Shown: positions 1 to 51,888 of the stretch, one piece after another
Layout: every line of letters begins with the position of its first letter
How positions within the stretch are numbered: position 1 is the stretch's first letter
NCBI GenBank assembly: GCA_964187785.1
Contig: OZ076409.1
Span: forward strand, 23,376,001 to 23,440,000
DNA: 64,000 nucleotides
From: Amphiscolops sp. MND2022
Lineage: Eukaryota
Direction of reading: 5' to 3'
Position numbers and translations under genes: made by a program
Notes under the pieces: generated by a model
Seen by the model: only the letters and a program-made list of their open reading frames with translations
The model's database searches: none
What the model was told of the DNA's origin: nothing

Positions 1-3000
1 TGATAAATTTAAAAGTTCAGATTTTTTTCGTAGTTTTCAGTCTGTTTTCCGCTGATATATTTGAAAGTTCAGATTTTTTTGTGATTTTCAGTCTGTTTTC
101 CGCTGATATGTTTGAAATTTCAGATTTTTTCGTTGTTTTCAGTCTGTTTTCCGCTGATGTATTTGAAAGTTCAGATTTTTTTTGGTTTTCGGTCTAAAAT
201 ATTTGAAAGTTCAGATTTGTTTTCGTGGTTTTCAGTCTGTTTTCCGCTGATATATTTGAAATTTCAGATTTTTTTCGTAGTTTTCAGTCTGTTTTCCGCT
301 GATATAGTTGAAAGTTCAGATTTTCTTGTGGTTTTCGGTCTAATATATTTGAAAGTTCAGATTTGTTTTCGTGGTTTTCAGTCTGTTTTCCGCTGATATA
401 TTTGAAAGTTCAGATTTTTTTCGTAGTTTTCAGTCTGTTTTCCGCTGATATATTTGAAAGTTCAGATTTTTTTGTGATTTTCAGTCTGTTTTCCGCTGAT
501 ATATTTGAAAGTTCAGATTTTTTCCGTAGCTTTCAGTCTGTTTTCGTTGATATATTTGAAAGTTCAGATTTTTTTTGTGGTTTTCGGTCTAATATATTTG
601 AAAGTTCAGATTTTTTTTCGTAGTTTTCAGTCTGTTTTCCGCTGATAAATTTGAAAGTTCAGATTTTTTTCGTAGTTTTCAGTCTGTTTTCCGCTGATAT
701 ATTTGAAAGCTCAGATTTTTTTGTAGTTTTCAGTCTGTTTTCCGCTGATATGTTTGAAAGTTCAAATTTTTTTGTGGTTTTCGGTCTAAAAAATTTGAAA
801 GTTCAGATTTTTTTTCGTAGTTTTCAGTCTGTTTTCCGCTGATATATTTGAAAGTTCAGACTTTTTTTCGTAGTTTTCAGTCTGTTTTCCGCTGATATAT
901 TTGAAAGTTCAGATTTTTTTTGTGGTTTTCGGTCTAATATATTTGAAAGTTCAGATTTTTTTTTCGTAGTTTTCAGTCTGTTTTCCGCTGATAAATTTGA
1001 AAGTTCAGATTTTTTTCGTAGTTTTCAGTCTGTTTTCGGCTGATATATTTGAAAGTTCAGATTTTTTTGTAGTTTTCAGTCTGTTTTCCGCTGATATGTT
1101 TGAAAGTTCAGATTTTTTTTGTGGTTTTCGGTCTAAAAAATTTGAAAGTTCAGATTTTTTTTCGTAGTTTTCAGTCTGTTTTCCGCTGATAAATTTAAAA
1201 GTTCAGATTTTTTTCGTAGTTTTCAGTCTGTTTTCCGCTGATATATTTGAAAGTTCAGATTTTTTTGTGATTTTCAGTCTGTTTTCCGCTGATATGTTTG
1301 AAAGTTCAGATTTTTTTGTGGTTTTCGGTCTAAAAAATTTGAAAGTTCAGATTTTTTTCGTAGTTTTCAGATTATTTTCCGCTAATATATTTGAAAGTTC
1401 AGTTTTTTTTTCGTAGTTTTCAGTCTGTTTTCCGGTGATATATTTGAAAGTTCAGATTTGTTTTTGTGGTTTTCAGTCTGTTTTCCGCTGAAATATTTGA
1501 AAGTTCAGGTTTTTTTGTAGTTTTCAGTCTGTTTTCCGCTGATATGTTTGAAAGTTCAGATTTTTTTGTGGTTTCCGGTCTAAAAAATTTGAAAGTTCAG
1601 ATTTTTTTTCGTAGTTTTCAGTCTGTTTTCCGCTGATAAATTTGAAAGTTCAGATTTTTTTCGTAGTTTTCAGTCTGTTTTCCGCTGATATATTCGAAAG
1701 TTCTGATTTTTTGTGATTTTCAGTCTGTTTTCCGCTGATATGTTGAAAGTTTAGATTTTTTTCGTAGTTTTCAGTCTGTTTTCCGCTGATATATTTGAAA
1801 GTTCAGATTTTTTTGTGGTTTTCGGTCTAATATATTTGAAAGTTCAGATTTGTTTTTGTGGTTTTCAGTCTGTTTTCCGCTGATATATTTGAAAGTTCAG
1901 ATTTTTTTGTGGTTTTCGGTCTAATATGTTTGAAAGTTCAGATTTGTTTTCGTGGTTTTCAGTCTGCTTTCCGCTGATATATTTGAAAATTCAGATTTTT
2001 TTCGTAGTTTTCAGTCTGTTTTCCGCTGATATATTTGAAAGTTCAGATTTTTTTGTGATTTTCAGTCTGTTTTCCGCTGATATATTTGAAAGTTCAGATT
2101 TTTTCCGTAGCTTTCAGTCTCTTTTCCGCTGATATATTTGAAAGTTCAGATTTTTTTTCTTGGTTTTCGGTCTATTATATTTGAAAGTTCAGATTTGTTT
2201 TCGTGGTTTTCAGTCTGTTTTCTGCTGATATATTTGAAAGTTCAGATTTTTTTGTGGTTTTCTGTCGAATATATTTGAAAGTTCAGATTTGTTTTCGTGG
2301 TTTTCAGTCTGCTTTCCGCTGATATATTTGAGTTTAGATTTTTTCGTAGTTTTCAGTCTGTTTTCCGCTGATATATTTGAAAGTTCAGATTTTTTTGTAG
2401 TTTTCGGTCTGTTTTCCGCTGATATGTTTGAAAGTTCAGATTTTTTTGTGGTTTTCGGTCTAAAAAATTTGAAAGTTCAGATTTTTTTCGTAGTTTTCAG
2501 TCTGTTTTCCGCTGATAAATTTAAAAGTTCAGATTTTTTTCGTAGTTTTCAGTCTGTTTTCCGCTGATATATTTGAAAGTTCAGATTTTTTTGTGATTTT
2601 CAGTCTGTTTTCCGCTGATATGTTTGAAAGTTCAGATTTTTTCGTTGTTTTCAGTCTGTTTTCCGCTGATGTATTTGAAAGTTCAGATTTTTTTTTGGTT
2701 TTCGGTCTAAAATATTTGAAAGTTCAGATTTGTTTTCGTGGTTTTCAGTCTGTTTTCCGCTGATATATTTGAAATTTCAGATTTTTTTCGTAGTTTTCAG
2801 TCTGTTTTCCGCTGATATAGTTGAAAGTTCAGATTTTTTTGTGGTTTTCGGTCTAATATATTTGAAAGTTCAGATTTGTTTTCGTGGTTTTCAGTCTGTT
2901 TTCCGCTGATATATTTGAAAGTTCAGATTTTTTTTGTAGTTTTTAGTCTGTTTTCCGCTGATATATTTGAAAGTTCAGATTTTTTTGTGATTTTCAGTCT

Positions 3001-5738
3001 GTTTTCCGCTAATATATTTGAAAGTTCAGATTTTTTCCGTAGCTTTCAGTCTGTTTTCGCTGATATATTTGAAAGTTTAGATTTTTTTTGTGGTTTTCGG
3101 TCTAATATATTTGAAAGTTCAGATTTGTTTTCGTGGTTTTCAGTCTGTTTTCCGCTGATATATTTGAAAGTTCAGATTTTTTTCGTAGTTTTCAGTCTGT
3201 TTTCTGCTGATATATTTGAAAGTTCAGATTTTTTGCGGTTTTCGGTCTAATATATTTGAAAGTTCAGATTTGTTTTCGTGGTTTTCAGTCTGTTTTCCGC
3301 TGATATATTTGAGTTTAGATTTTTTCGTAGTTTTCAGTCTGTTTTCCGCTGATATAGTTGAAAGTTCAGATTTTTTTGTGGTTTTCGGTCTAATATATTT
3401 GAAAGTTCAGATTTGTTTTCGTGGTTTTCAGTCTGTTTTCCGCTGATATATTTGAAAGTTCAGATTTTTTTCGTAGTTTTCAGTCTGTTTTCCGCTGATA
3501 TATTTGAAAGTTCAGATTTTTTTGTGATTTTCAGTCTGTTTTCCGCTGATATATTTGAAAGTTCAGATTTTTTCCGTAGCTTTCAGTCTGTTTTCCGCTG
3601 ATATATTTGAAAGTTTAGATTTTTTTTGTGGTTTTCGGTCTAATATATTTGAAAGTTCAGATTTTTTCCGTAGCTTTCAGTCTGTTTTCCGCTGATATAT
3701 TTGAAAGTTTAGATTTTTTTTGTGGTTTTCGGTCTAATATATTTGAAAGTTCAGATTTGTTTTCGTGGTTTTCAGTCTGTTTTCCGCTGATATATTTGAA
3801 AATTCAGATTTTTTTCGAAGTTTTCAGTCTGTTTTCTGCTGATATATTTGAAAGTTCAGATTTTTTTGTCGCTTCCGGTCTAATATTTTCGAAAGTTCAG
3901 ATCTGTTTTCGTGGTTTTCAGTCTGTTTTCCGCTGATATATTTGAAAGTTCAGATTTTTTTCTTGGTTTTCAGTCTGTTTTCCGCTGATATATTTAAAAG
4001 TTCAGTTTTTTTGTAGTTTTCAGTCTGTTTTCCGCTGACATGTTTGAAAGTTCAGATTTTTTTGTGGTTTTCGGTCTAAAAAATTTGAAAGTTCAGATTT
4101 TTTTCGTAGTTTTCAGATTATTTTCCGCTAATATATTTGAAAGTTCAGTTTTTTTTCGTAGTTTTCAGTCTGTTTTCCGGTGATATATTTGAAAGTTCAG
4201 ATTTGTTTTTGTGGTTTTCAGTCTGTTTTCCGCTGATATATTTGAAAGTTCAGGTTTTTTTGTAGTTTTCAGTCTGTTTTCCGCTGATATGTTTGAAAGT
4301 TCAGATTTTTTTGTGGTTTCCGGTCTAAAAAATTTGAAAGTTCAGATTTTTTTTCGTAGTTTTCAGTCTGTTTTCTGCTGATAAATTTGAAAGTTCAGAT
4401 TTTTTTCGTAGTTTTCAGTCTGTTTTCCGCTGATATATTCGAAAGTTCTGATTTTTTGTGATTTTCAGTCTGTTTTCCGCTGATATGTTTGAAAGTTTAG
4501 ATTTTTTTCGTAGTTTTCAGTCTGTTTTCCGCTGATATATTTGAAAGTTCAGATTTTTTTGTGGTTTTCGGTCTAATATATTTGAAAGTTCAGATTTGTT
4601 TTTGTGGTTTTCAGTCTGTTTTCCGCTGATATATTTGAAAGTTCAGATTTTTTTGTGGTTTTCGGTCTAATATGTTTGAAAGTTCAGATTTGTTTTCGTG
4701 GTTTTCAGTCTGCTTTCCGCTGATATATTTGAAAATTCAGATTTTTTTTCGTAGTTTTCAGTCTGTTTTCCGCTGATATATTTGAAAGTTCAGATTTTTT
4801 TGTGATTTTCAGTCTGTTTTCCACTGATATATTTGAAAGTTCAGATTTTTTCCGTAGCTTTCAGTCTGTTTTCCGCTGATATATTTGAAAGTTCAGATTT
4901 TTTTTCTTGGTTTTCGGTCTATTATATTTGAAAGTTCAGATTTGTTTTCGTGGTTTTCAGTCTGTTTTCCGCTGATATATTTGAAAGTTCAGATTTTTTT
5001 CGTAGTTTTCAGTCTGTTTTCTGCTGATATATTTGAAAGTTCAGATTTTTTTGTGGTTTTCTGTCGAATATATTTGAAAGTTCAGATTTGTTTTCGTGGT
5101 TTTCAGTCTGTTTTCCGCTGATATATTTGAGTTTAGATTTTTTCGTAGTTTTCAGTCTGTTTTCCGCTGATATTTTTGAAAGTTCAGATTTTTTTTGTGG
5201 TTTTCTGTCGAATATATTTGAAAGTTCAGATTTGTTTTCGTGGTTTTCAGTCTGTTTTCCGCTGATATATTTGAGTTTAGATTTTTTCGTAGTTTTCAGT
5301 CTGTTTTCCGCTGATATTTTTGAAAGTTCAGATTTTTTTTGTGGTTTTCTGTCGAATATATTTGAAAGTTCAGATTTGTTTTCGTGGTTTTCAGTCTGTT
5401 TTCCGCTGATATATTTGAGTTTAGATTTTTTCGTAGTTTTCAGTCTGTTTTCCGCTGATATTTTTGAAAGTTCAGATTTTTTTTGTGGTTTTCTGTCGAA
5501 TATATTTGAAAGTTCAGATTTGTTTTCGTGGTTTTCAGTCTGTTTTCCGCTGATATATTTGAAAGTTCAGATTTTTTTCGTAGTTTTCAGTCTGTTTTCC
5601 GCTGATATATTTGAAAGTTCAGATTTGTTTTCGTGGTTTTCAGTCTGTTTTCCGCTGTTATATTTGAATGTTCAGATTTTTTTCGTAGTTTTCACTCTGT
5701 TTGCCGCTGATATATTTGAAAGTTCAGGTTTTTTTCTA
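1..5738. repeat. Tandem satellite of ~52-bp and ~41-bp related monomers (runs off the left edge)
   Basis: Long monomer ATATTTGAAAGTTCAGATTTTTTTCGTAGTTTTCAGTCTGTTTTCCGCTGAT alternates irregularly with a short variant ending GTGGTTTTCGGTCTAAT. All ORFs in this span are repeat translations. Confidence 0.98.
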
Positions 5739-5899
5739 AAAGTTAAAGACTGATTAATCGTCTTCAGTTACCGTGGGTTAATTGGTTCGCGAGTTGCTAC
5801 AGTACGCTATGTAATTCATATGACTTTGGTTTCAAAGTTTCTGTAGCTCGTTCTACGATTCGGATTCCGGAAATGCAATCTCGGTGTACAATATTGCTC

Positions 5900-7200
5900 C
5901 TCTTTTGTCCGGTTGTTTATCTTGCATCCATACTAGTTACAATTTTATTCAAAGGAACTGCTTCTCCTTGTTTTGTTCCGGACGTTTTAATGATCTTTGC
6001 GGTTTGTCATTTGCTGAATCTATCTTCAGCAACTGAAACTTCATGTTCCTCGGAATTTTTTCATGCGTGAAGTTCAATTTTTGGCTTTTCTCATTTTCGT
6101 AGTTTTACCATGTTCAGACCTTGTTACCGCGTAAAAACTACTTAAGTTCATGCTATTTTTATACTCCAATTATCTGCTCGTTTGCGATTTCCGGCCACAG
6201 AGACCATTTGCTTTGGTATCTAATCGAGCTTCTTTTTCTGTCGTAGTCTTGTCAAATTTTTCACCTTGCAACAGTTGAAGAGTTTTTTTCGACGCCCACG
6301 TCAAAGCATTCTTCGTCCATGAACTTTGCAAATGTGTCTCTACCTCATTGTGACGTATGTTAGTGCAGTTACCTCGTGGGCAGTGAATGACACGGATAAT
6401 TGAGAAATCCTCGGCACAAGAATACAACATATGCAAATTTTTCTGTTGCTTGTCGTAGTGTCAGTGCAGCTTGACGTATTCACGGAATTCGCACTTTTTC
6501 TGCGGCTAACTTAATGTCTAACAACGTATCGTCAGTCGGTACTCGAAAAGATTGCTATACTTATGAGTATTTCTATGCTCGATTTGTGAGGATGCTTCAT
6601 GTTCTTCACCATTTAACATGTCACGTCTGTTTCAAAAGGGTATTGAGACATCTGTTTGGACCATGCGTAAATTTCAATGTGCTGTTCAGGTTTCCTGATT
6701 CAAAGTCCAACCTTACTCAGCAGCAAGGAATATAATCTCGGTCCCGTTCTGAATTGATTGGTTGCCCGAAACTTGAGAGCAACAATTTGTTTGTCAAAGT
6801 TTTTTCTTCTTAGACAAACGTTTTGCCAAAGGTTGGGTGTCGTACGGTAGAGGAACGCAAGTTTCTCGTTAACGCCTCTGGTTATAGGCAAGCAAATGCG
6901 TTTTGATGGAATGTGATGCTTGTGTGTATGCTGAATTACAAGTTTTTTGTCTTTTCCCTACATGAGGTCAATAGAAGAACCTTCATTTCAACCAACTGAG
7001 CCGGTACTCCGAATCTATCTTCAAATAGTATGGAGGTTCCCTTAAAAGCGTTTTAGTGTTTCGGAGAAACAGTTGTTTGATGAATAAGTGCCATTTTAGT
7101 AGAAAATGAGTGCCACGAATACAATGGGAAGTTTTTTCTGTTTCTTGTTTTGTCAGATAACAGAATGAATGCTCGTAGTGGGCACGTTTCACAGAACTAA
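5900..7200 (-). mobile_element. Degraded CRE-like (restriction-like endonuclease) non-LTR retrotransposon, C-terminal relic
   Basis: Minus frame reads KCEFRE...HCPRGNCTNIRHNEVE...EKEARLDTKANGL, matching the zinc-knuckle/RHNE and ARLD motifs of CRE/REL elements. Many stops; boundaries approximate. Confidence 0.65.
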
Positions 7201-11072: not shown

Positions 11073-11272
11073 NNNNNNNNNNNNNNNNNNNNNNNNNNNN
11101 NNNNNNNNNNNNNNNNNNNNNNNNNNNNNNNNNNNNNNNNNNNNNNNNNNNNNNNNNNNNNNNNNNNNNNNNNNNNNNNNNNNNNNNNNNNNNNNNNNNN
11201 NNNNNNNNNNNNNNNNNNNNNNNNNNNNNNNNNNNNNNNNNNNNNNNNNNNNNNNNNNNNNNNNNNNNNNNN
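11073..11272. other. Assembly gap (200 N)
   Basis: Run of N. Confidence 1.
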
Positions 11273-14229: not shown

Positions 14230-14979
14230 TGTAACGACCGGCTAGTGACACACATCTAGGAAGAGGGATAATGCCTAGGATGCTGAAACAGGAGACCGTT
14301 GTCTTACTACATCCCTAGACACTAGTTTTTGATCCCAAAATGGTCTCCATTTGATCCCAAGATGTTTTTGATCCCAAGATGGTCTCCTTCTATCGTCTAA
14401 GGAGGCTTCTCTAATTAGAGCTCCGAAGCAGCGTGCCGGCACTCTCAAAGTCCGGACACGCTCCACAAGCCTGTAAAAACATTCCCTAATATTCCTAGCA
14501 CGTTCCTACGACTTCCCACATATTTCCGAGGTCAAAAAAGGTATCTATCTGAAACACATTTTCTTTGGAGAATTAGATCTCAAACGACCTAGAAGGTCAA
14601 ATATCTTCCAAATACAAAAGAAATACCAGTAAAGAAGTAGCGATAATGCACAGGGATAAGCCTCAATTACATTGCAGTTTGTCGTTGATCCTCAACATCT
14701 TCCCTCTGGCACTACTCCGTCTTTTCGTGTGCTCTTCCAGCGAGATGACACAACACTCCGCTCGTCTTGTTTCTCTTTGGCATTTCTCGATTTTTCTTCA
14801 CATTCTTGCTGTTTCTCAATATTCTTCCACGTGCTCTCTTCTTTGCTCTGTCTCCGCGTGGTTCCTTTTTTCGGTCAAGTTCTCGTACCTGCCAGGTCGC
14901 CATTTTTATTGTTCTATTTCGATACCGCACATTTCGAATTTTTCATCGAAATTTTGTCATGCCGATGGCTGACGTTACA
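14230..14979 (-). repeat. 3' LTR of giant Gypsy element
   Basis: TGTAACG...CGTTACA inverted termini; near-identical to 33089-33797 plus 34869-34872. Confidence 0.95.
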
Positions 14980-17328: not shown

Positions 17329-20300
17329 TCAAGAATCGGGAAAAAACTCACTTCGCTGCGTTAAACTACCACTTTTCTTGATTCTTGAAAAATTGAACAT
17401 TTCCCACTTTGGCCTCGTAATGTTGGTTCGATCACAGTACATTCGCGATGTGTCACAAACGTATGGGTAGCGCAACCCGGTGGGTGTTTCGCCCCGCTTT
17501 CTGCCTCCCAGTCTTTGGATAATTCTGGCTAGGACTCTCAGGACTACCTCTGCGTTCCAGCCTGCAAAAGAGTCTGCGGAGCCTGTTTCTGGGTCTACGG
17601 GGATGCGTAGTCATGCGACTGGGTGGAATTCTATTGGCATTGGGAGCGCGCACAGTGCACGTGCTCGAATGATTGACGTGAAGTCGTACTCCACTCGCTT
17701 TTTGTCTTTGATGATCGTATAAGCCATGGGTGGTCGTAGAGATGCGAAATTCCTCACCACTGGTTGGTAAGTAGGACCCCGCTGGGATCCGTCCGAAGTT
17801 ACAAAGTGTAGAATGGATAAGGCAGGGGCACTTGCTGCCACTCGTAGGGCTTGTGTTGAATATCGCAATGCCATGACTGCACCGAAGATTGGCCAAATTA
17901 TGGGGGCGATGAGGGGTATCAGATCTTCTGTCTCTACTAGCACAAGAGTGGCAATCTGGGAGGGGAACAGGAAGCCTGGAATCTGGTTGGGTTCCTTGTT
18001 CACTGCAGGATTGTCATCCAGGGGATGCATGATTCCCGTGACGTTTACCCAGGTGGAGTAAATCCATGCGAGGAGGGCATCAATGTTGAGTTCTAATTGC
18101 TTCTTCATTTGTAGGGGACCCGCTGGGTCAAGGGGTGTAAGGTTGCATGTAGCCAGTTTTTCAGGTTCTGGACGTACACTAGGAAGCTGAAAAGGCACAA
18201 GCTTCCTTTGTCGAATATCAGTTTCTGTAGGAGGCCTGAAGGTCCTTTGTACACTGCGTGTAAACCGACCGCCATCATGTACGCTAAGATTTCGTACATT
18301 GTAGCTCTTTGCATTGCTTCCACATAAAAGCTTGTTTGTTGATCGTCTAAATTGTATTCTGCTTGCACGAAATTAGGAAGTCAGAATGGGGATATATTGT
18401 ATAAGAGTACCGGGAACAGGATTTCTAGCTGCTCTGCGACTTGATTTAATGTCTCGCGCAACGATTGGTGCCATGTTTGGTATGTGTGTCTGGGTTCTGT
18501 TTCATTCTGCTTGGCTAGATTTCGCGCCATCACTACTATCAATGTCAGAGTTGGCGATACTATTCCAGGATGTGCGTCCGTGGCTACTGCTGCCATTGGA
18601 AAAATTGTCGTGTTCGTTCGTTCTGCTTTGATCGCTTCTGTCACCCTGAATAGAGCTAGTAGCTCCTTATTGAATTTTGGGTCATGAGTTTTGTCATCCA
18701 GGGAGGATTTGTCCCTGCGTTCATACCATAAGTTATCCACAAGATGTTCGCGCTCTTGTTCATTGGGATAATATAGTTGGCGCACGCCCTGTTCATCTAA
18801 GGATCTGCATGACATTTGCATTCCATAGTCATAAGCAGTTGCTTCATCAACTAAGAGCTGCGAATTTCCTGCATACCCAGTGTATCCTTGTAAGGCTTTG
18901 GATACTTCTTCGGGGTAGGCAGGGTACGATGCCTCCCAGGGACGCCATGTCGTTGCGTTGATCCTGAGGTTTGACGCTACGATGTAGAAGTTTAAGTCCA
19001 TTGCATATGATGATTCTAGCGTCAGATACAAGAACTGCCGTATTGCTTTCGGAAGGTATATGTACCCAGGGGGTGACACAAACACGGTTCCCGTAGTGGA
19101 TTTTTTGTTTTTCATCATCGTTACGATGTTGGACATTGTCTCTGTATAGACAACGACTTCGTCCGTGAGGAATCCTTCAGTGAATCGGGTGTGTTGTGTA
19201 TCGAAGTATCTCAATGTACCTCGCAGGGTGAGGTGATCGATTACATTCGAGTCTACAAAGAATGGGGGGAAGTGGTATTGTTTCTGCCGCCGCTGGCGTG
19301 AATATTTTGTTGGTGACTTCGGCTTTTTCGCTGAGCGAGGTGCAGGGCATGTTCATTAACCTAACGTCCATCAGGGTATTTCTGGCGTTGTAGGAAGATT
19401 TGATGGTTGAGTCGACGAAGAAAGCAGATTTTGTTTTCTGCAGCAAGTCCTTTCCCATTGAAAGTAGCGTGATGGGGTCTCTTGCATAGTTCTTGGTTTG
19501 TAGACGGTCTTCGGCGAATCTGGCTAGTTGTTGACAAGTAAGTCGGTTCGTCGGTTGCAAAGGCTGGAGGTAGGTAGAGTTGTCTTTCTGCAGATCCCAT
19601 CGCAGGCGTTCGAACCATGGTGGGCATCCACTGGCTGTAAATATCGGTCGTTTAACGGGTCGAGTGCAGGGTACTCCGATAGTGGCTTTTTCTATGGTTC
19701 TTTGAGTTCCCTGATCTCCTTTGCTGATTGCACTTTCGAATTTTTGCCTTAGGGGGTTTTCTTTGTCAGTCGCGGCTGGTATTTCTCGTTGGAGACGCAC
19801 TGCGTCTCTTGCTGTTATGTCTAGTTGCCGCATTTCTGCTGCAGTAAGCCATTCTTTTGTTACTTTTTGTTTTCTGGCTTCTGGTTGGGTGGGGGAAGAA
19901 GCGGGGACTCCTCTATTCGCTTTTGAGCTTGATTGTTCGCCCTGTTCTCTAGCACGCTTCCCAGCGTTGAGTTTGTCTCGTAGATCTACAGGGGCGTTGG
20001 TGGTCTTGTTCTCCACCCGTTGCTGCTGTCGCTGGCGTTCTTTGAGCTTTGGATCTTTCTGGAAGCCTACTAGGCGGCTTGGCTCGTTTCTTGTGGTTCA
20101 CTTCTGGAGGAGGATGGCGTCAACTCATCGTATGAGTCCTGAAAAGTGACTGTTCTAGTCTGGCGATTTTCTCTTGTTTGTTCTTCATTCGTACTCGGGT
20201 TATTTGCAATTGCATTCACTTGTACCCCTCCCCCTGAAAGGTTGAAGGAAGCATGAAACTGGTTGAATGCTGTGTGAGTAAACGTACACCATTAGATGCT

Positions 20301-20850
20301 AAGGGCATGGGTGGGGTCAAAATCGGAGGAGGTACTATAGGCAGGGTGCAACTGAATCTTGGGGGTTTCATTTGTGGAGGAGGAGCCAGATTTTGTGGTT
20401 GCAGAAGCGGCAGTACCTGGATCGGTGGTTGCATGGTCGGTGGAGAAATTCGAAGCGACCGTTCTTGGTCCATGGAGGCCTAGTATGCTCTCCATAGATC
20501 ATGTGGGAGCGAGGGTCAATAAGGTCATGAGTTAGGACATAACCATGCCAAGTTCCATCACGGAAGGTAGCGGAACGCTCGAGAGGCACTATCCTACTAG
20601 TGATTGTCAAGAGGACGTCAGGATAAGCCGCTTGTGCCTGCATTTGAACGATGACAATGGCAAGGCCAGCGATCATTGTGGGGGTGGCCCCATTTTGTAG
20701 TGCATGTTGGACAAGGGCGAGCTGGTCGACTCGACCATTAACTTCGCCGATGGGTGAAGTGGTGCTGGTAGTATTGGAGTTGGGGGCACGCTGTCGAGGA
20801 TTTTGTTGATTAGTGGGTGCTGGCATGCGATTTCGCGAAGAAGAATCCAT
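17329..20850 (-). pseudogene. Large accessory ORF2 of giant Gypsy (~1170 codons) with central SGNH-like fold
   Basis: Consecutive same-strand ORF pieces (20368-21093, 20216-20473, 19177-20016, 18381-19214, 18105-18368, 17611-18198 and read-through to 17329) join through a few frameshifts and stops. No signal peptide or TM anchor seen. Confidence 0.7.
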
Positions 20851-21174
20851 TGATAGTAGGCGGGATAGCACCGGGGGGCAGTTAGATGAAATTGGCATGA
20901 TCGGGTGATGGTGAATTTTGGGATAGCCGCGCAGAGGCGAAGCAACAGAACAAAACTGAAAAACAAGTTGCGGATGAACATAAAAAGATAAATTGTGAAC
21001 AAGCTGAAAGTAAATGGGACAAACACACGGAGGTTTAAAATTAGGAAGTATGACGTTTGCGATTAAAAGTTTTTCAGTACGAGTTTCAATCATTCAAAAT
21101 TTAGAACGCGATCTGTGGTAAGGAATTAATGTCGGAAATAGGTAAGGAGAGGAAAGGGTGAGGCCTCTGGGGGC

Positions 21175-22400
21175 TCAATTAGTGTTTATATTGATTGAGG
21201 TTACCGATGCTATGGAAACGTAAACTCGATTGTGGAAAATTATCTCTGGATTTTGACCCGCAAAGAGATCACGTACCGCAGCATACCAAGTTGATAACAG
21301 GTTGATTGATCGTTCGGGATCGTAAATGGGCAGGTGGAATTGTGTGATGCGATATCAGTGAAGCTGGTGTGAGAAGTATGTAAGACATGTGTGCAGAAGT
21401 TCGTGCAGTAGTGGATGTTTGTTGGAAGCTCTGGTGCACAAGAGAAAGATTTGATTGTTCCAGGGTGCGGTAGGCGAGTGAATCAAGCGTATGGCAGTGC
21501 CGACCGATGGTCTCAGGCGGAATATGTTTTCTTGCCCATATTTGCGAATGACGTAGCGAGCTGTTGCCGAGTATGACAGCAAATCCGCTGGACAACACAA
21601 CACTACGGTGCCAGAGGCCTGTAAGAGATCTGTGTCGGAATAAGTTATCCATGGCACGTAATTTGGTCTGGTTTTCGGTTGTGTAATAAGCCATTTTCCC
21701 GTGGTGTCGTCGTCATCATTCATCAGTTGGGGTGTCAAGTGTTCAAAAATCGCTCTGCGATCCTCCCATATCGTGCGACGTAGAGGGCGGTCGCCCATGT
21801 TGATGCATGACCAGTCGTGTACTATAGAGAGTGCTTCAAGGGCTGTGATAGACGTTTCTGGAGTGTAAGTTAATCGGTCCAAGGTGTGAATTTTTTCTTG
21901 CCGACAGAAGGTGATAGCTATTAGCTGTAACCAATGCTGACCTAAAAACTTTCCACGGAAGATGTCAGCGAGGTGGAAGCAGAGAAAGTCAATGGCTTCT
22001 ACGAGGGTGCGTAAGTTTTCTAGGCACATCAATAATGTGGTGGGGGAGACTAGTGAGGAATCATCAAGGGAAGTTACCAAAAGCCACCATCCTTGGGTAG
22101 GCTGGTACACGTCACCTGGAAGGGAAACAAAGTAGTATTTCTTCCATATCTGGTGTGCAGTAATGCAGCGAATCATCTGTGCGTCGTCGCTCTCTTCGTT
22201 TAATTCACTGAATGTAAGTGAAGAGGTAAAGGGGGTATGACTGCAGATAACGTAAATTCTAGTCCACCGCGATCATAACATGTCCACTCCTTGAAACGAT
22301 AAGTAGGGCAGTCTGAGGGAGAGGAGTCATACATTGCCATTGGTGTGGATTCCCGCGGCGGTACTAGTCCAGATTCTGCGCTGGCATAGGTTTTCTTCAC
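21175..22400 (-). pseudogene. Tandem TARG1/OARD1-like macrodomains at Pol C-terminus
   Basis: ITYSDTDLL...VVLCCPADL...IRKYG...QIFLLCTR...LHTCLTYF...ITQFHLP...WYAAVRDLFAGQNPEIIF parallels TARG1 ITYVKGDLF...AHCISEDC...KKKFG...YIYYLITK...LQKSLEAM...VTDLSMP...IEEVFEATDIKITV. A second, more diverged copy lies upstream (WWLLVTSLD...LMCLENL...IAITF). Confidence 0.65.
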
Positions 22401-23495
22401 GGTCAAGATGATGTGTCGGACAGTTGGTGGGGGTTTGAGTTTTTGTTGCTGAGCTTGTACAGCTAGAATGTTGCGGATGTTCAGACGTTTGTGCTAGTGC
22501 GAGTTCACAAGCGGGGATTGCCTCTCTCCCGAGGCCAATCGGAGATTCGAAGGTTCAGTAGTGATCAGCTGGACGCAACTACAGTTGCAGGAACCGCAGG
22601 TTCAACATCTATATCGTGGAGCTCTATTTGCTCGCAGCTGGTAGCGTGGTGCTCGCGTCGAAGCGTTCTCATGTGAGCCCGATTGATCGGGCAATGGGCT
22701 CGCAGGGATCTCAGGCAAAGTCATGGCTCTATCTTGAGTTCTGGGCGGGGTTATAGTAGAGAATCTCGTTCTTGGGCCTCTTCTAGGCCGCAACATTGGT
22801 TTTCGAGAAGATGAGGTGGTTCTGCTTGAGGAAGTGGTACGCTGATTTCTGCAACCAGGGGGTCTGCCTCGTGGTCGTCCTCGCTTGCTTCCGTTGTTGG
22901 GTTGCATTGGAAGTGGGTGTAGTTCTGGATTTTGGTTTTCCTTTTCGATATGGGTTTCTCGTGACTGTTCCGTCGGGACCAAAGGTCCTGACTCATTGGG
23001 GTTCCTAGCTTGCTGGTTAGACAAAGGGAAATTGCTTAGGGTATCCGTAAGTGATGGGTTGGATAATAATGGGGCTGAGGTCCCTGAGGGTGATGGTATC
23101 AAGCTCCTGGTGAGTGTTCCTGGTTGAATTTCTTCTTGGTCGGAGAACAATGGTTCGAAGTCATCTAGTTCGGGAAATACTACTTGTGGAGCTGAATCTT
23201 GTATCGGTGGTTCGGTTATTTCTGGTTCCGATTCAGAGTCGGATGGATACTTAAGATGGCTGAATCTTCTACGTGGAACTTCCTGCTCGAGGGCAGTTTG
23301 TGTGCGGGTTTGGATGGTTCGCGGGGGAACCGGTCTGGTTGGTTCAATTTCGAACGATGCCTCTGGGAGTTGTTCGGGCAGAAAGGAATCTCGGGAAATG
23401 TCCGAGGTGATTTCTTCGTTACTTTTTTCTACGCATGGATCCGCTATGATGGCTACGTTCTGATCCAGCCAGAAGGGTTGGTGTGTAGCCCAGTC

Positions 23496-24560
23496 TCAAG
23501 GGGCGGGCACGTGTTTCTTCAGTCTCTCATAATGAACTTTTTGACCAGTGTCAAGTACGTAAATGCGTCCATCTTGCAACACATCCGTTACTTTGTGGGG
23601 TCCGCGCCATGCGCGAACTAGTTTGCGGGTACTACCCTTGGGTATTATGTGGCAGAATACCCAAACAGCATCGCCTACAGCGTGCGCTTTCGCCTTGAGG
23701 TGGCGATTGAGTTTCAATTTCTGCCTTAGTTGAGCTTGATGGGTGTTTCTTCTGACCAATTCATGAATTTGTTGTTGCCTGGCTAGTAGATGTTCTACAA
23801 ACTCTTCTTTGGAGTCGAAGCCTCGCGCTGCGCATTCGGGGTTTATGAATGATAGAGGAATGGATTTCTCTGCGCCATGTTGGAGCATGTTCGGTGAAAA
23901 TCCTGTGGTGGCATGTCGGGTCGAGTTGTAGGCACCCAGGACTCCGTCGATATGTTCATCCCAGTCCTGCATTCTGCGTGACGTGTAGACTCGGAGCAAG
24001 GTAGGCAAAGTTCTGTTCTGTCGTTCAACTAGTCCATTACCTCTGGGGTGTGCTGGCGTGGACGTAACCTTGGTGACCTGTGATGCCTTCATGAGTTCTT
24101 GAGCTATTTCAGCTGTGAAGTTTGTGGCGTTGTCGGATTGCATCCTTGCTGGGGTGCCGTGCCTGGCAACCCACTTGTTGAGGATGATCTTAGCCGTGGT
24201 CTACGCGTCGTATTCATCATGGGCGCATAGGACAGCTTCTGCGAACTTGGTAAAATGGTCTATTATGACCAATAGTCCGGTGTTACCTGATTCAGTTTTG
24301 CAAAGCTTCAGGTGGTTGAACTGTACTAGATCATTGAAATTGCTACTGTTTATGATTCGCAAGGGGAAGCAGGGAATTCCTGCGGGGTGTTTTGCTTGCT
24401 GGCATGTCAAGCATTTTTAGATGTGATTCACTACATCTCTCTTGATGTCGGGCCAGGTGTATCGCTCCTGTATTCCCGCTAACACTTTTCCCACGCCTTG
24501 ATATCCTGACTAGCATGTGCCCGATAGAGGATTTCATGTTGGAATAGTTGTGACATGACT
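23496..24560 (-). pseudogene. Gypsy integrase
   Basis: HHCC zinc finger remnants (YRAH...YTWP...CLTC), LVIIDHFTKF, QSDN, LVERQNRTL, AYNSTRHATTG, and GPY/F-like WRGPHKV. Confidence 0.92.
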
Positions 24561-28149: not shown

Positions 28150-30814
28150 ATACATTCTGATGCCGAATGTTCGGTGCAGCCACAATTGATGCAAAAGGCG
28201 AGGGTACCCTGGATTGGTAGTGATGCTGGGTAGATCTCAATTTTCATTCCGTGTGGCTGTGATGGACAAGTCCATCCTCCGGTTGGGTTCGTATGGCAGG
28301 AGTTCACTTGCTGTTGCACTGGCTCTCGTGCACGATCTTCCAGCGGGCAGTCTATCACAAAATGTGATGGGTCGCCACAATTTAAACATGCTCTTTGAGG
28401 TGGTTGTCTATAGGGTGCCGGTTGTTTAGGTTGGGGTTGTTGAGCATGTTGTGCTGGTGGGGGAATTGCCGGAGGCAATTTCGGTTGTGGGTTGGGTTGG
28501 GTTTTGGAGCTTGTTGTTGCTTTGGAGGGGCCATCTGGTAATTGTCCGGGCGAGATGAACCACGCATACGCAGATATTGTTGGACAGTGAAGCGGAGCGC
28601 TTTCACCGTTGGAGGTGCCTCTACGTATTGTTCTGGAGCGTACATGAGAGCGAGATTTCGTTTGTTCTTTGAGAGCTCAAAGTTGCGTACTCCCTCTTTG
28701 AACCTTCGCATGATTTCATATCGTCGAACGGTTACTTCTTCTTTGGCGTAACCCTGGATACGTAAACCTTCAAGGGCAACTAGGTATTGCATATAATCTT
28801 CTTCATTGTTTTGGTTGCGGGTTCGAAATTGTTGTTGGATGTGGATCTTGCTTGATCCAGTTCCAAAACGACGTGCCAATGTCGCGAAGACTTTATCGTC
28901 AGTGTCTCTTTCTGCCCCGGACTTGTTGGTGATATAATCTCTTGCTTCGTGTTCTAAGTACTCGATTATTGTCCAGGCTTTGTCAAGGGGGAAGGCTCTG
29001 GCGTGCGTTTTCTCTAGATGGCGTTCCATTAACATCATTCATCCGTCAGCATTGCCGTCTTTCGTTCCTCGATACTCTGTGGGCTTGTTTTTTGATTCTT
29101 TGGCCGCTAGTAGCGGTTCCAGGCCCTTCGACATGGCGGTCGATATGGCTTCTACCTGCGCTTGTCGTTGGCTGGTTCTTGGGGTGTCGGGTATTGCGTT
29201 CGAAGCTTCGAGAGTTTCCTCCGTTTCCCCGTGATCTTGTTCTAAATTTCGTTTGATCGTGAGTTTTCGTTGCGTGCTCGTGGCCTTTGGCCGCGGGACG
29301 ATTTCATATACGTTTGTTTGGGCGGGTTTTGACGCTTGCACTGGTTCGAGCAGTGTAGTAATTTGACTCTCTTGTGGCCATTCCGCTCGCATGTGAATAG
29401 TAGTCTCCCGTGTTCGATGCACCATGGGCGAAAGGATCAAATGAGACACTAGTTATTGGGTCTGTACCAACATCGCGTGACTCGGTTTGGATTACTCTCG
29501 CCATCTTGTTGGTTTTTGGTAGGTCGCTTTTGTATGTTGCAGGCGGTATTAGTTTCAAAAGCTTGACTTGTTGCACACTGGGTTGTGCAACTTTCCGATA
29601 GGTGGCTTGTGTTGGTAATGGAGCTGCACTGGTAGAAGGCAAATCGTTTAGGTGTGGTATCATAGGCGCCACTGGCGCTGCTTTTGCTTGTGCAGGTGCT
29701 GTTTGAGACGCCATGGCTCTCACTCCTAACGTCAAGTCTTTCATTGCAGTCATTATGTCTGTCATGCGGGTGTTTGCATCGGTTTCTTTGCGCTGCATTA
29801 GATCGAACATTAGCCTCATAAGTTCGTCGGCTTGACGATCTCTTTCTTTCCTCACGGCTGACACTTCAGCCATGCGAGTGTCGGCCATGTTTTCTCGCTG
29901 CTTGATTAGATCGTTCAGGGAGGCCATGCATGCTTCGAGTCTTCCTTGGTTTTGGCGTCCTTTTGCTTGTATTTCCAGGATACCCTTTCTCTCATTTTAT
30001 CCATATCTCTCATGATGACTTCGGCTCGCATTGCGTGTTCGCTATTTTCCCGAGCCAATCGTGGGTGCACTTGTGAGAGTTGAGCTAAATTACCTCGAAA
30101 ATCTTCTCTGGCCGCCTGCGATTCTTTTCTGATCTTAGTTGAATCTGGGGCCGTTTCCACGCTTGCTCTGGAGTTAGGCGTGTAAGTTAATCGCTCGGTA
30201 TTTCCTTGGCCAGAGCTCAGGTTTCTTGACGGAGGCGTTCTGAAGACATACCGCAGTGGGTTATATTCCATTTGGGTTGATAGGTTTCCGTTCGGTTTGT
30301 TTGGTGCCTTAGATGTTTCTCCTGGTTGTGTGTATCCGCTAGAAAAGGATTTCGGACTGCGCTATTGGTTAGCGTATGAGAACCCGATGGGTCCCTATGA
30401 ATCGATGGGGTGCGGGGAGCCGCCACCGGAGTTGCGATGTCGCTGTCTTGCGATGCGGCTTCTTCGGTGGTGCTTACTTCGCACAATGGTTTTTTGTTTG
30501 AGTTTGGCCATCCCTCTAAACTATAGTCGGTGACTTCTAGAGGGGGCCACGCATTATTTTGCGTGGTATTTTCAGCACCATCCACTGGAATAGTACTGTC
30601 GGGAAAGCTTGCGACGAACTTGGCTGCTCGGTAGCAGCTGTCATTTCCACATTTTGTTCCGAATTGGAGACATAGCCAGACATGAGTTCTGAAAATATAT
30701 CTACAATGGTGGATTCGAGTAGTTTTTGGTGAGAGTGTCCCACTTGATCACGTTTTCTGTTGCGCTGCCGAATGGATTTGTAGCATGGAAATTTCTGAGT
30801 TCATTCCTGTCCAT
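28150..30814 (-). pseudogene. Long Gag with two CCHC zinc knuckles
   Basis: CLNCGDPSHFVIDC and CINCGCTEHSASEC; capsid-like region LARRFG...QQQFRTRNQ...YLVALEGL; long coiled-coil/low-complexity N-terminus. Start ATG (30814) inferred. Confidence 0.85.
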
Positions 30815-33088: not shown

Positions 33089-34872
33089 TGTAAGGACCGG
33101 CTAGCGACGCACAGCTAGGAAGAGGGATAATGCCTTAAACAGGAGACCGTTGTCTTACTACATCGCTAGACACTAGTTTTTGATCCCAAAATGGTCTCCA
33201 AGGGTGACTTTTCTATCGTCTAAGGAGGCTTCTCTAATTAGAGCTCCGAAGCAGCGTGCCGGCACTCTCAAAGTCCGGACACGCTCCACAAGCCTGTAAA
33301 AACATTCCCTAATATTCCTAGCACGTTCCTACGACTTCCCACATATTTCCGAGGTCAAAAAAGGTATCTATCTGAAACACATTTTCTTTGGAGAATTAGA
33401 TCTCAAACGACCTAGAAGGTCAAATATCTTCCAAATACACAGAAATACCAGTAAAGAAGTAGCGATAATGCACAGGGATAAGCCTCAATTACATTGCAGT
33501 TTGTCGTTGATCCTCAACATCTTCCCTCTGGCACTACTCCGTCTTTTCGTGTGCTCTTCCAGCGAGATGACACAACACTCCGCTCGTCTTGTTTCTCTTT
33601 GGCATTTCTCGATTTTTCTTCACATTCTTGCTTTTTCTCAATATTCTTCCACGTGCTCTCTTCTTTGCTCTGTCTCCGCGTGGTTTCTTTTTTCGTTCAA
33701 GTTCTCGTACCTGCCAGGTCGCCATTTTTATTGTGCTATTTCGATACCGCACATTTCTAATTTTTCAACGAAATTTTGTCATGCCGGTGGCTGACGTGGT
33801 AAATAGTCAATTGGCTTAATGCCATTTGGCTTAAAGTCATTTGGCTTAATACAATTGGTCACTTGTCCTAATTTTTTAAAGCTAAGTGTCTCGGGTATTG
33901 GTCACTTGGCTTAAAGTCATTTGACTTAAAACCACTTAGTTTAAAACACGTGGCAGATTTTGTCGAATTTATCTTTATAACGTAGTCAGCGTATTATTAT
34001 AACATGCCATTTCAAGTACCCCTCGGATATGTCCCCATTTCCTCTAGTGCCTCGCGGCCCCTTGGGGCCGCTCATATTCCCATCTTGCTAAGCGAGGTCG
34101 AACAGGAGCAAAAACCTAGTGGGAACGGAGATCGCGAAGCGATCGTAGTGGGAGTTGGTCTTTGCGACGGTGAGGGCGAGCGTAGTGTACGCCTTTGTTC
34201 TAATTGCTTGGGTCTAATGGATTTAGATCTAACTGTTAGGTCTAACTTTAAGATCTAATTTTATCTAAAATACTTAGGTCTAACCCCTTTATGATCTAAT
34301 ATGTGTTCTGAAAGCGAAAATATAATGTGGGGCATATGCGATGTATGCACGCTCGCCCTCACTGTCGCAAAGACCAGCTCCCACGATGATCGCTTCGCGA
34401 CCTCCGTTCCCGCTAGGTCTTCGCTCCTGTTCGACCTCGCTTAGCAAGATGGGATTATAAGCGGCCCCAAGGGGCCGCGGGGGACTAGAGGAAATGGGGA
34501 CATATCCGAGGCACAATTTATACTTTATATCACTTTTTAGTTTTTGATCCTAATTGACCTATTTTTTCTCCGAAATTAGATCAAATTAGAAGAGATTTTT
34601 AGACCTGATTATTTAGATCAATTTATTCAGATCTCAGTTTTGCCCCCTCTCTTAGATCTATTTCATTAGACCTGATTCCACGTAGTCAGGGCGAGCGTGC
34701 ATACACCGCATATGCCCACAATTGATATTTACGTGAGTTGACTTTTTCATTCCGTGAGTTGGAATGGAGTTGGCTTAATTTTGTGGTCACTTGGCTGAAA
34801 ATTTTTAAGCCAAATGACAAAAAAATTAAGCCAAATGGTATTAAGCCAAGTGACGTAACCGCTGACGTTACA
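33089..34872 (-). repeat. 5' LTR of giant Gypsy, interrupted near its outer end by a MITE
   Basis: TGTAAGGACCGGCTAG at 33089. The LTR runs to GCTGACGT (33797) and resumes as GCTGACGTTACA at 34861-34872. Confidence 0.93.
33798..34860. mobile_element. MITE/non-autonomous DNA transposon, GG...CC ends, 8-bp TSD GCTGACGT (Merlin-like)
   Basis: TIRs GGTAAATAGTCAATTGGCTTAATGCCATTTGGCTTAA and rc GGTTACGTCACTTGGCTTAATACCATTTGGCTTAA; TTGGCTTAA arrays; inverted pair of core modules at 34021-34183 and 34349-34511. Confidence 0.9.
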
Positions 34873-36375: not shown

Positions 36376-37194
36376 TGGAGAAAAAAGTCATGCTCTATTC
36401 CATTTTAAGAGGCGATTGTCAAGTGAATGGCAAAAATGAAAAAGTAAAAGAATCATGAAGAGAAAAAAGTTGAATAAAATATCGCGGAACTCTGTTCCTG
36501 AATCATCTACTAGAAACGAAGATGTTACCTCGCAATTATGAATCTATCGGTGAAAATGAGACGAAAAAGTTAATCCTAAAACGAAGATCCATGATATCTG
36601 ATAGAGGAAAAGAAAAAAATCCTAAAATTTGAAAACAAAATGAATTGCGGACGTCTGGCAGACGTAGTCTTTTGCTGATGCCCCTGTGTTTGGAGGGTCC
36701 CCTCCCCTGTTTAGGATAGGAATACTTTTGGAGGGTCCCCCCTGGTGCTGTGTGTTTATTTAGTTGTTTTGAATGTTCTTTTGTATACGTTCATTTATAT
36801 ACATACGCATCAGAGAAATTCGAATTCTCCTTTTGAGAGTGTCGGATTGGGTCCTACCTAATAAGGTTCTTATCGGGTTCCTACTACTTGAGAAATACCG
36901 ATCTACTTTATAGGAGTCCGAGGTTGTTTGCCGGCCGGTTCTCCAAGACGTGATTTTTAAATGCACCATGGCCTTCACTTCATGCTTACCAGAACGTTTT
37001 ATTTCGTGAAAATCATCCAAAGTTGTTTTTCGATAGTACCATGGTTGCTCAGACACATTCTGCTGTTAGTGCGTTAGCCGGCTTCGTTGGAAGTATCGGA
37101 TAGTCATTTCACGCTACATTCCTCATCCACCCTCCTTCGTATTGAATCTATTAAATAAAATAATTATTAATTGCGAACAAACATTCTTGTGGAA

Positions 37195-38010
37195 ATGATG
37201 TCTCTTGCGAAAAGAAGAGCTATCGAAGGCCCTCATGTTGGTAGCGGCAAAAAATACTGCAAAGATGAAGGAGCTATTGCAGAATCCTCTCAACGATTGG
37301 CACAACTCCGTGAATCATCCTTATTGTGGGATGATTTCAACAAGTCAGCTTTGGATTTGGCACAGTTCCTCTTGAGCAAATTGTTGGTGCGCGTTGTTGA
37401 TGGTTACATTCTCTCTGGAAAAATCGTTGAAACAGAAGCATACTCCGGTCACCCGGACGTTGCATCACACTCTTTCAAGGGTAAAACTGAGAGAAATAAA
37501 GCTATGTTCATGGCGGCGGGGACATGTTATGTCTATTATATTTACGGACGCCAAAACTGCATTAACGTATCCAGTCAAGAAGATGGAGGAGCTGTTTTAA
37601 TTCGAGCAGTTGAACCTATTGATGGCATTGATTCCATGGTCGCCAATAGAGGGAATTCTTTCCGCGAGGCTCCTGAAAGTACGAAAAAGAAATCATCGTT
37701 TTTAAGAAATTTAACGAATGGACCTGCTAAATTGTGTCAGGCAATGAGTATTACTAAAGACGATTTTAATTGCACCCACTTCGCGCCTAATTCAGTTTCC
37801 AACGACGGCAACGATTTCCTTGCAACCGAAAACGTAACTTTAAATCTTGAACTTTTGATTGCGAATCCTGACTGTGTGGAGAACCTACCGTTGGAGGACA
37901 TTGTTACTGCAACGAGAATAGGAATTGACGGAGCTGGAAAAGAAGCTGCAGCGCAGCCATTCCGGTTTTATATCAAAGACAATCCTTTCGTGAGTCACAT
38001 CAAGAAATAA
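37195..38010 (+). CDS. MPG: DNA-3-methyladenine glycosylase (AAG/MPG), apparently intronless
   Basis: Motifs GKIVETEAY, ASHSFKG, MFMAAGTCYVYYIYG, CINVSS, AVLIRAVEP, TNGPAKLCQAM, TRIGI. First ATG at 37195. Confidence 0.93.
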   Translation: MMSLAKRRAIEGPHVGSGKKYCKDEGAIAESSQRLAQLRESSLLWDDFNKSALDLAQFLLSKLLVRVVDGYILSGKIVETEAYSGHPDVASHSFKGKTERNKAMFMAAGTCYVYYIYGRQNCINVSSQEDGGAVLIRAVEPIDGIDSMVANRGNSFREAPESTKKKSSFLRNLTNGPAKLCQAMSITKDDFNCTHFAPNSVSNDGNDFLATENVTLNLELLIANPDCVENLPLEDIVTATRIGIDGAGKEAAAQPFRFYIKDNPFVSHIKK

Positions 38011-44357: not shown

Positions 44358-44788
44358 TGAAAATTTTTTGCAATTGACTAAGTCAATGCTCTTCGGCATT
44401 TTGCTACTTTTCGGGAGGAAAAATTGAGTTTTCAATGTTTACAGTAATGGAAAGTGTGTTTTTTCAAGAGTGCTTCATTGGGGGTATTTTCTGGAACTAT
44501 GAGATTGATAAGAGTTTTTGCATCATTCTCCTCGATCATACTTGGAAAACTTAAAAAAAAATACTTGGAAAACAATTAAAGTGGTCAAATTGTAAACTTC
44601 CAATCATATCGAGTGTTGGTTGAACTTATGTAGGCTTCATTTGCTTACCCAGAGTATTTTGTGACCGTGCATGTTAATCCATTGCTTCTACACCTTAAAT
44701 GGAAGTAATTTTCCGTTAAATCTCTACAGCTTTCACTCGAATCCTAGATCAGTGGTATCTGACGTGGTGACTCATTTTCAGCTTAGTT

Positions 44789-50900: not shown

Positions 50901-51460
50901 GCATTTGAGTCTTTCAAGCATTGATTACTCTGGTATCTTTTTTCCATCAAAAGAATCTTTTTGGCTTGTTCGTTTAATTTCCATTAACATGTTCACTAGT
51001 GTAATGAGATACTTTAGTGTTTCATAAGGAATGTGCAAAAATCGCATTTGGGTATTTCAAGCATTGAATACTCTGGTATCTTTTTTTCCATTAAAAGAAT
51101 CTTTTCGGCTGCTTCGATTAGTTTCCGTTGACTTACGCACTAGTGTAATGAGATACCTTAGTATTTCATAAGGGATGTGCAAAAATCATTTCGCTGATCC
51201 TCGAATATGATCGTCTTCGTTGGAAGGTGATACATTGCTAATCACAAGATAACATACCTCGCATTTGAGTGTTTCAAGCATTGAATTTTTTGGTATCTTT
51301 TTTCCATTAAAAAAATCTTTTTGGCTATTTCGTTTAATTTCCAGTAACATGCTCACTAGTGTAATGAGATACCTTAGTATTTCATAAGGGATGTGCATAA
51401 AAGATTTTCCTTCTCCGAAGGTTTCTCATCTTCACTGGAAGGTGGTTCATTGCACATCGG
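47941..51460. repeat. Tandem satellite, ~218-bp unit, ~16 copies
   Basis: CACTAGTGTAATGAGATACC anchor recurs at 48161, 48385, 48602, 48820, 49038, 49256, 49472, 49690, 49908, 50126, 50342, 50560, 50777, 50994, 51138 and 51353. Confidence 0.97.
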
Positions 51461-51838
51461 CCAACAACCTTACGATAAGTTGGCAAAACATAGCCCACTT
51501 TCTCATTTGGAATTAGAAGTTCGGGCACAGTAATCAATGCTGAGAAACGTTTAGTCTAAAAAGTTCAAATTCAATAACTAAAATTTGTTGTTGAGTTTTA
51601 TTTTAATTTAATTTAATATTCCATGATTTGACGCATGAACACTTTTATAAATACTGATGAAAACTTTTCATGATTATTGAATGACTTTTAGCGCGAAATA
51701 CTTTGACTCATTGTTTTTCTTGAAATCTTTGATATTAGTCACTTTGATCAAAAAGAGATTAATTCCGTCCAAGAATTTTTGCTATCAAGCTATAGCGTAA
51801 ACAAAGAGCAACTGCCAGTGCAGCAGAATTCTACATTT

Positions 51839-51859
51839 TGGTGACCCTCTCGACGTGAT
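51839..51859 (+). promoter_or_regulatory. PBS, tRNA-Trp type with 3-nt insertion
   Basis: TGGTGACCC-TCT-CGACGTGAT versus the tRNA-Trp complement TGGTGACCCCGACGTGAT. Confidence 0.8.
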
Positions 51860-51888
51860 ATTGGTTAGATCGTTCCTAATTCTTTCAT

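Follow-up and report, generated by a model that had tools for sequence, protein, structure and literature searches.

Human TARG1 (OARD1, C6orf130; PDB 4J5Q, 4J5R, 4J5S, 2L8R and 2LGR), a minimal fold of the ALC1-like class of macrodomains, has a catalytic dyad composed of Lys84 and residue 125, which is given as Glu125 in PMC7050489 but is Asp in the TARG1 PDB sequence. The substitutions G123E, G43E and I44E abolish both binding and hydrolysis of ADP-ribose by TARG1, and G123E and G43E retain RNA binding (PMC5928194). DarG (5M3I, 5M3E), BT1257 (2AFC), SCO6735 (5E3B) and Poa1p (6LFQ) are single catalytic domains, bacterial or from yeast. DarG keeps the dyad Lys, and SCO6735 hydrolyses ADP-ribose with neither of the TARG1 catalytic residues (PMC7050489), so that loss of the dyad alone is no proof of inactivity. 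Among mobile elements, chromoviruses of the Ty3/Gypsy type carry an extra domain of reader type at the integrase end, and these chromodomains at the Pol C-terminus steer integration (PMC12440569; 10.64898/2026.05.21.726589). Macrodomains have also been described in LTR retroelements: epsilon-like endogenous retroviruses of fish are reported to carry macro-domain ORFs (Basta et al. 2009, as cited in PMC4977317). Finally, SUD-N and SUD-M of coronavirus nsp3 are tandem macrodomains within the polyprotein of a selfish element and do not bind ADP-ribose (PMC2674928).

The window analysed here, a stretch of 64,000 nucleotides from Amphiscolops sp. MND2022 (contig OZ076409.1, positions 23,376,001 to 23,440,000), contains on its minus strand a decayed Gypsy LTR retrotransposon of 19.6 kb with a predicted pair of TARG1-type macrodomains. 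Unlike TARG1, the pair is tandem and fused to Pol, its Lys84 is changed to Arg and both glycine loops are replaced. The arrangement differs from that of chromoviruses in that the tail has a macro fold about 420 aa beyond the integrase and no chromodomain. The fish elements are Retroviridae with macrodomains in additional ORFs, whereas here the host is a Gypsy element and the pair is tandem, integrase-fused and apparently remodelled. SUD gives a much weaker fold match (Z 6-7.6), and its likeness to the pair would be a functional analogy only. Listed from the 5' end of the element, the features are:

33089..33797, minus strand: 5' LTR, matching 14230-14975 (588 nt at 98.5% identity, a further 120 nt at 89%)
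28300..30814 (lower limit approximate), minus strand: gag with a PNMA-like capsid region, a CCHC knuckle and frame changes, located by tblastn with the intact P0292 and P0376
25300..27700 (limits approximate), minus strand: protease, reverse transcriptase and RNase H, with stops and frame changes (Pfam RVT_1 E 5e-11, RT_RNaseH_2 E 8e-27; PR-RT-RH-IN order in P0292)
23514..24509, minus strand: integrase (Pfam rve/rve_3), 88% identical to the P0292 integrase
22887..23495, minus strand: acidic, poorly conserved Pro/Ser-rich linker (pI about 4.2-4.9 in relatives)
22860..22886, minus strand: AT-hook-like RGRP motif inside a basic stretch, recognised by sequence in 4 of 5 family representatives
22566..22625, minus strand: Cys cluster C-x2-C-x4-C-x-C, a predicted zinc site, 55-80% identical across families and absent from P0384
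22227..22421, minus strand: conserved 65-residue alpha/beta segment before macrodomain 1, which the model predicts as folded (block-wise pLDDT 78-94)
22224..22233, minus strand: frame change parting the macrodomains from the integrase frame, where tblastn with P0022, P0012, P0028 and P0292 switches frame
about 21874..22230, minus strand: predicted macrodomain 1, TARG1-type, with a shortened first loop and without the catalytic Lys (P0030 model, Foldseek, VIA, profile)
21736..21870, minus strand: two conserved helices separating the macrodomains (model helices 197-209 and 221-232; 31-40% identity across families)
about 21226..21663, minus strand: predicted macrodomain 2, TARG1-type, with a stop at 21357-21355 (P0032 model, Foldseek, VIA, profile, residue counts)
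17453..21093, minus strand: several more interrupted reading frames that follow the macrodomains within the element (ORFs of 241, 306, 323, 253 and 186 aa)
14230..14975, minus strand: 3' LTR, starting TGTAAC behind a purine run and terminating GTTACA

The element is flanked by direct repeats, as expected of a Ty3/Gypsy LTR retrotransposon, and TG...CA ends are visible on the 3' LTR. The start of the 5' LTR is damaged, and no target-site duplication is apparent by eye; a stretch beginning TGG, a possible primer-binding site, follows this LTR. The Gag-PR-RT-RH-IN order typical of Ty3/Gypsy is found in P0292, P0384 and others, and the window is collinear with it. In the gag region the Pfam PNMA match is weak (E 0.005), and zf-CCHC is present in the relative P0292. 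At 23612-23589 the integrase carries a WRGP (GPY/F-like) motif. About 250 aa with no Pfam match separate RNase H from integrase in this family (P0292 1818-2074; the 24970-24515 region of the window). The copy in the window is dead. Its LTRs diverge by only 1.5%, yet roughly ten frame changes have accumulated in its coding region, which shares 76-92% identity with the closest intact relatives; such low LTR divergence in a decayed copy may reflect movement in trans after decay, or assembly indel errors. The frames at 21093-17453 possibly constitute a third ORF of the Gypsy element; they have no Pfam match under E 0.06, and the 323-aa frame has no PDB sequence match. The same stretch of about 3.6 kb holds a Cys/His cluster at 20442-20395 and a hydrophobic segment in the 18372-17614 frame (hydropathy 2.2).

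The sequence-only reading of this DNA had placed a Pro/Ser linker and a Cys cluster behind the integrase, and had let the integrase frame run on through single stops, one of them at 21355, into the macrodomains. The linker and the cluster are indeed located there, at 23495-22887 and 22625-22566, and a TGA is observed at 21357-21355. The run-on of the integrase frame through single stops, in contrast, did not hold. The integrase frame has stops at 24419 and 24203 within the integrase, at 23498, at 22604 (22604-22602, interrupting the Cys cluster) and at 22496, and it terminates at the TAA 22202-22200. The macrodomains lie in another frame, which is open from 22272 to 21358, is interrupted by the TGA at 21357-21355 and ends at the TGA 21177-21175.

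Relatives were collected with the window protein, carrying X at its stop, as the query, which gave 24 longer proteins and 118 of similar length. One of the relatives, P0292, joins a CCHC knuckle, protease, RT, RNase H, integrase and the C-terminal macrodomain region in a single natural frame of 3178 aa. When long proteins were searched with the P0292 integrase, 76 were listed. The clade comprises 66 of them, and 54 of these 66 polyproteins read from the integrase to the end of macrodomain 2 in one frame. Thus, the check that the sequence-only reading had suggested, whether intact copies keep the macrodomains in frame with the integrase, gave a positive answer. Three of the 66 stop inside the module and nine end 8-311 aa past the integrase, where the tail normally measures 718-780 aa; the 10 listed long proteins outside the clade showed no match. 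The tail is also present in families whose integrases are 66-67% (P0377, P0378) and 48% (P0384) identical to that of P0292. A tree of 27 integrase rows unites the tail-bearing families with support 100/99, and since its label test scores truncated rows as tail-less, a single origin is not shown by the tree alone. In the family of P0382, P0383 and P0385 the ORFs are cut short, and for that reason no macrodomain was seen. Visual inspection suggested a likeness between the end of P0382 and P0279, for which BLAST gave no confirmation.

Integrases 96-98% identical to that of P0292 occur in 55 of the 76 listed proteins, and clusters reach 1094 members; the macrodomain-bearing clade is abundant and apparently recently active. 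A metagenome scan with the family profile returned no locus, and one with P0311 returned a single 1-kb fragment (L001) without integrase context. Divergent members on short contigs, one of them from JGI/IMG, hint at more than one host. No match to the Chromo domain was found in P0292, P0291, P0284, P0285, P0377, P0378, P0382 or P0384, and those relatives that do have a chromodomain (P0391, P0393 and P0395) group in a different branch; judged by the chromodomain, the macrodomain-bearing elements are not chromoviruses. Other fusions were encountered among Gypsy polyproteins: P0386, of 3697 aa and from the sister branch of this clade, has an SF1 (AAA_11/AAA_12) helicase fused behind the integrase, and P0393 is listed with a SET domain (PF00856) plus a chromodomain (PF00385).

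Conservation along the tail is uneven. The macrodomains are 35-45% identical across families, versus 66-69% for the integrase, and the alpha/beta segment at 22421-22227, which is separate from the TARG1 match, reaches 34-39%. Between families with this integrase identity, the Cys cluster retains 55-65%, whereas the two linkers fall to 20-26% and 4-10%, the Pro/Ser linker itself being 22-26% identical. This pattern is protein-level evidence for purifying selection. The stretch from RGRP to the Cys cluster is basic (pI 10.3-11.9) in four representatives and missing in P0384; AT_hook in Pfam was reached at E 3.1 only, in one relative. The macrodomains themselves are neutral to acidic, with a pI of 5.0-8.2 in five representatives. 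Since the most distant member, P0384, has neither the AT-hook-like motif nor the Cys cluster, these two elements are not required alongside the macrodomain pair.

Because the window's own macrodomain sequence matched nothing in Pfam or among PDB sequences, structure models were made from natural relatives, about 70-75% identical to the window copy and not derived from it. For macrodomain 2 the model was that of P0032, which shares 75% identity with P0027, the protein of the window itself; the mean pLDDT of the model is 69 overall and 70-94 by block across macrodomain 2. Residues 172-317 of this model match human TARG1 in Foldseek with E 1.2e-8, TARG1 occupying the top 7 ranks, and TARG1 is again the top match in VIA (Z 16.8, rmsd 2.8, 140 aligned). 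It is followed there by DarG (Z 15.6), then by BT1257 and Poa1p, all of the same fold class (Z 12-16); SCO6735 matched macrodomain 2 in Foldseek only. For macrodomain 1, a 236-aa stretch of P0030 spanning the domain was modelled with a pLDDT of 91. Its residues 68-186 match TARG1 in Foldseek (E 2.5e-4, the top 8 all TARG1) and in VIA, where TARG1 is also the top match (Z 10.9, rmsd 3.2, 116 aligned). Identity to TARG1 in the structure matches is about 15%. The sequence-only reading had proposed two macrodomains of the TARG1/DarG type with the second copy clearer; both models of relatives match TARG1 first, and the VIA scores reproduce the order of the two copies.

Sequence comparison points in the same direction. 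For macrodomain 2, a 56-member divergent profile compared with PDB sequences gave TARG1 as the only matches under E 0.9 (E 0.002). A macrodomain 1 alignment also matched TARG1, but through its macrodomain 2 columns; its macrodomain 1 part gave no such match. The tail of P0384 matches TARG1 by sequence alone (E 2e-6), and a profile comparison aligns macrodomains 1 and 2 over 69 columns (probability 89%, E 2.4e-6). The reversed window protein found nothing under E 1.6 against three distant relatives, versus E 2e-77 to 1.5e-10 for the forward protein. Neither the window sequence alone nor a close-relative profile found TARG1 among PDB sequences, and the Pfam Macro family gave no match in the window frames or in 36 close relatives or long polyproteins; it was reached, at E 0.3, by one of the 56 divergent members. 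A protein-atlas search with macrodomain 2 reached a Macro cluster at only 0.89. The pair is invisible to Pfam and is therefore missed in annotation. A JmjC/cupin fold, proposed by the protein atlas for the 305-aa frame, was rejected, since its recognition was below threshold and both models are macro folds. Collectively, the models, with sequence matches in support, argue firmly that the two TARG1-type macrodomains are real, and that TARG1/OARD1 is their closest structural and sequence kin within the ALC1-like class.

To compare the ADP-ribose pockets, TARG1 numbering was taken from ungapped loop alignments (divergent profile, P0384). Residues were counted in 302 of 318 proteins aligned to the window protein, the denominators below being the proteins that cover each site. 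In the window, macrodomain 2 keeps Asp20, which we take to be the adenine-binding residue, and carries Lys84 to Arg (21432), Gly121 to Asp (21321), Gly123 to Glu (21315) and Leu124 to Arg (21312). The same state prevails among relatives: Asp20 is retained in 163/176 and Asp37 in 162/178 proteins, as are the Thr83 and Pro118 positions, the Gly43 position is Ala in 158/173, Lys84 is Arg in 147/159, Gly121 is Asp in 131/136, Gly123 is Glu in 124/136 and Leu124 is Arg in 131/136. Near-copies weigh heavily in such raw counts. Of 392 proteins, the 162 in which both loops are covered were therefore clustered at 60% identity, which gave 18 groups. Lys84 is Arg in 15 of them and Lys in one (P0176); Gly121 is Asp in 17, and Leu124 is Arg in 16. 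At Gly123, 14 groups have Glu and one more has Asp, so that the position is acidic in 15/18, and Gly is kept by P0279. Residue 125 is mostly Ser, Pro or Gly, Asp125 occurring in a single group of the 18; P0384 retains Asp125 together with two glycines in the first loop. The two catalytic residues never occur together in any of the 18 groups. Macrodomain 1 has Ser or Ala at the Lys position in addition to its shortened first loop.

These alignments agree with the earlier statement that the loops corresponding to GAGIA and GCGLD in TARG1 are diverged. The substitute residues are conserved to about 29% identity, whereas the surrounding linkers fall to 4-26%, and the pocket is, on this evidence, remodelled and not decaying. 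It is likely blocked for ADP-ribose. ADP-ribose binding is doubtful given the acidic Gly123 position in 15 of the 18 groups and the loss of binding caused by G123E in TARG1; we infer that both binding and catalysis have been lost. The sequence-only reading had envisaged an anti-ADP-ribosylation module, which as an active eraser is unlikely when no group keeps both catalytic residues, or else a binder or an inactive domain. Of this second suggestion, binding of ADP-ribose is thus doubtful, and the word inactive does not fit the conserved substitutes. With neither the dyad nor the glycine loops, the pair would stand outside the TARG1 hydrolases.

We consider it somewhat more probable than its opposite that the two domains form a tandem pseudo-macrodomain without catalytic activity, through which the integrase docks on a chromatin partner of the host, at the position where chromoviruses have their chromodomain. 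Chromatin targeting, which the sequence-only reading had also raised, is here our best guess, drawn from position and analogy, and the pair would by the same analogy work like an integrase C-terminal accessory domain built from TARG1-class folds. According to this scheme, an ancestor would have captured a TARG1-like gene, the second diphosphate loop would have been remodelled to D-x-x-R, and the domain would then have been duplicated; the Asp and Arg shared by both copies in the second loop suggest that duplication followed the loop change. A flexible linker would keep the tail joined to the integrase, DNA would be held in most families by the basic AT-hook-like segment and the Cys segment, and the rebuilt groove would bind either a protein of the host or some ligand that is not free ADP-ribose. 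Such docking could bias the insertion site in a chromodomain-like manner. A more specific version, which we put forward only tentatively, is that an entire clade of animal Gypsy elements turned a captured TARG1 into a tandem reader of altered specificity, the conserved groove of which, lined by Asp, Glu and Arg, would recognise either a chromatin protein of the host or a mark related to ADP-ribose. If true, this would be a second type of integrase-targeting reader beside the chromodomain, and it would link retrotransposon insertion to PARP-controlled chromatin.

The features of the remodelled pocket also fit a non-catalytic counter-defence, in which the pair would bind or decoy a host restriction or ADP-ribose-signalling protein independently of target choice, an explanation that we judge unlikely. 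A precedent is provided by the two SUD macrodomains, which fail to bind ADP-ribose (PMC2674928) and have acquired other partners. The SUD-Paip1 structure is among the fold matches of macrodomain 2, and the SF1 helicase of P0386 occupies the same position as the pair, implying that the site accepts non-chromatin cargo. Host-facing parts often diverge fast, and the macrodomains diverge faster than the integrase (35-45% versus 66-69% identity). However, production of the pair would not exceed that of Pol, and it is fused beside DNA-binding-like motifs in 4 of 5 families. That macrodomain 2 might still be an atypical ADP-ribose binder or hydrolase, acting against PARPs on protein or cDNA ends, appears improbable: acidic residues occupy both glycine positions of the second loop (Gly121 Asp in 17/18, Gly123 Glu or Asp in 15/18 groups), G123E removes both binding and activity of TARG1 (PMC5928194), and both catalytic residues are kept in 0/18 groups. 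Such an activity would nonetheless be compatible with the nearest folds (TARG1, DarG, BT1257 and Poa1p), with the retained Asp20 and Asp37 positions, with the strong, active-site-like conservation of the substitutes, and with the ability of SCO6735 and DarG to function without the full dyad (PMC7050489).

Binding of the element's own RNA or cDNA in the particle, in aid of packaging or reverse transcription, would find parallels in the RNA binding of TARG1 G123E (PMC5928194) and in the binding of G-quadruplexes by SUD (PMC2674928). We regard it as very improbable; RNA binding by TARG1 is ascribed to positive surface patches (PMC5928194), whereas the pI here is 5.0-8.2, although a local positive patch is compatible with a neutral-to-acidic net charge. 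Finally, the window copy is broken, as would be allowed if the captured gene had no function and simply travelled with the element, but the tail is in frame in 54/66 long proteins and across families 48-67% identical in integrase, and its pocket residues are fixed while the linkers decay, which makes a mere passenger scarcely credible.

Domains fixed beside the integrase indicate which host systems retrotransposons exploit or evade. If the pair is a targeting module, as we prefer, it represents a new integrase tether; if it is a decoy, it would suggest that ADP-ribose signalling acts against retrotransposons. The Gly-to-Glu substitution with which biochemists abolish the binding of ADP-ribose by TARG1 has been fixed here by nature, and the pair could serve as a natural test case for the role of the TARG1 fold without ADP-ribose. 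Among viral structures, numerous macrodomains were matched with 8-18% identity, none of them named as a retroelement and many of the rows nameless. Our literature search found no Gypsy integrase or Pol with macrodomains, an architecture that Repbase reports, subscription papers or supplements may list; under the relevant terms, no Gypsy Pol macrodomain appears in PMC5408684, PMC12440569, PMC4120745, PMC11673190, PMC6001957, PMC9289625, PMC6431247 and two preprints.

Elsewhere in the window, two host genes are recognised on the plus strand, a methylpurine-DNA glycosylase at 37171-38010 (E 2e-52) and an F-actin capping protein alpha at 44771-45364 (E 9e-27). Satellite repeats in tandem (unit length about 52/146 nt and 218 nt) occupy 1-6000 and 47887-51416, and a gap of 200 N lies at 11073-11272. 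A young BEL/Pao element is present on the plus strand at 51589-58038, with identical LTRs of 250 nt and frames of 1298 aa and 393 aa separated by one stop.
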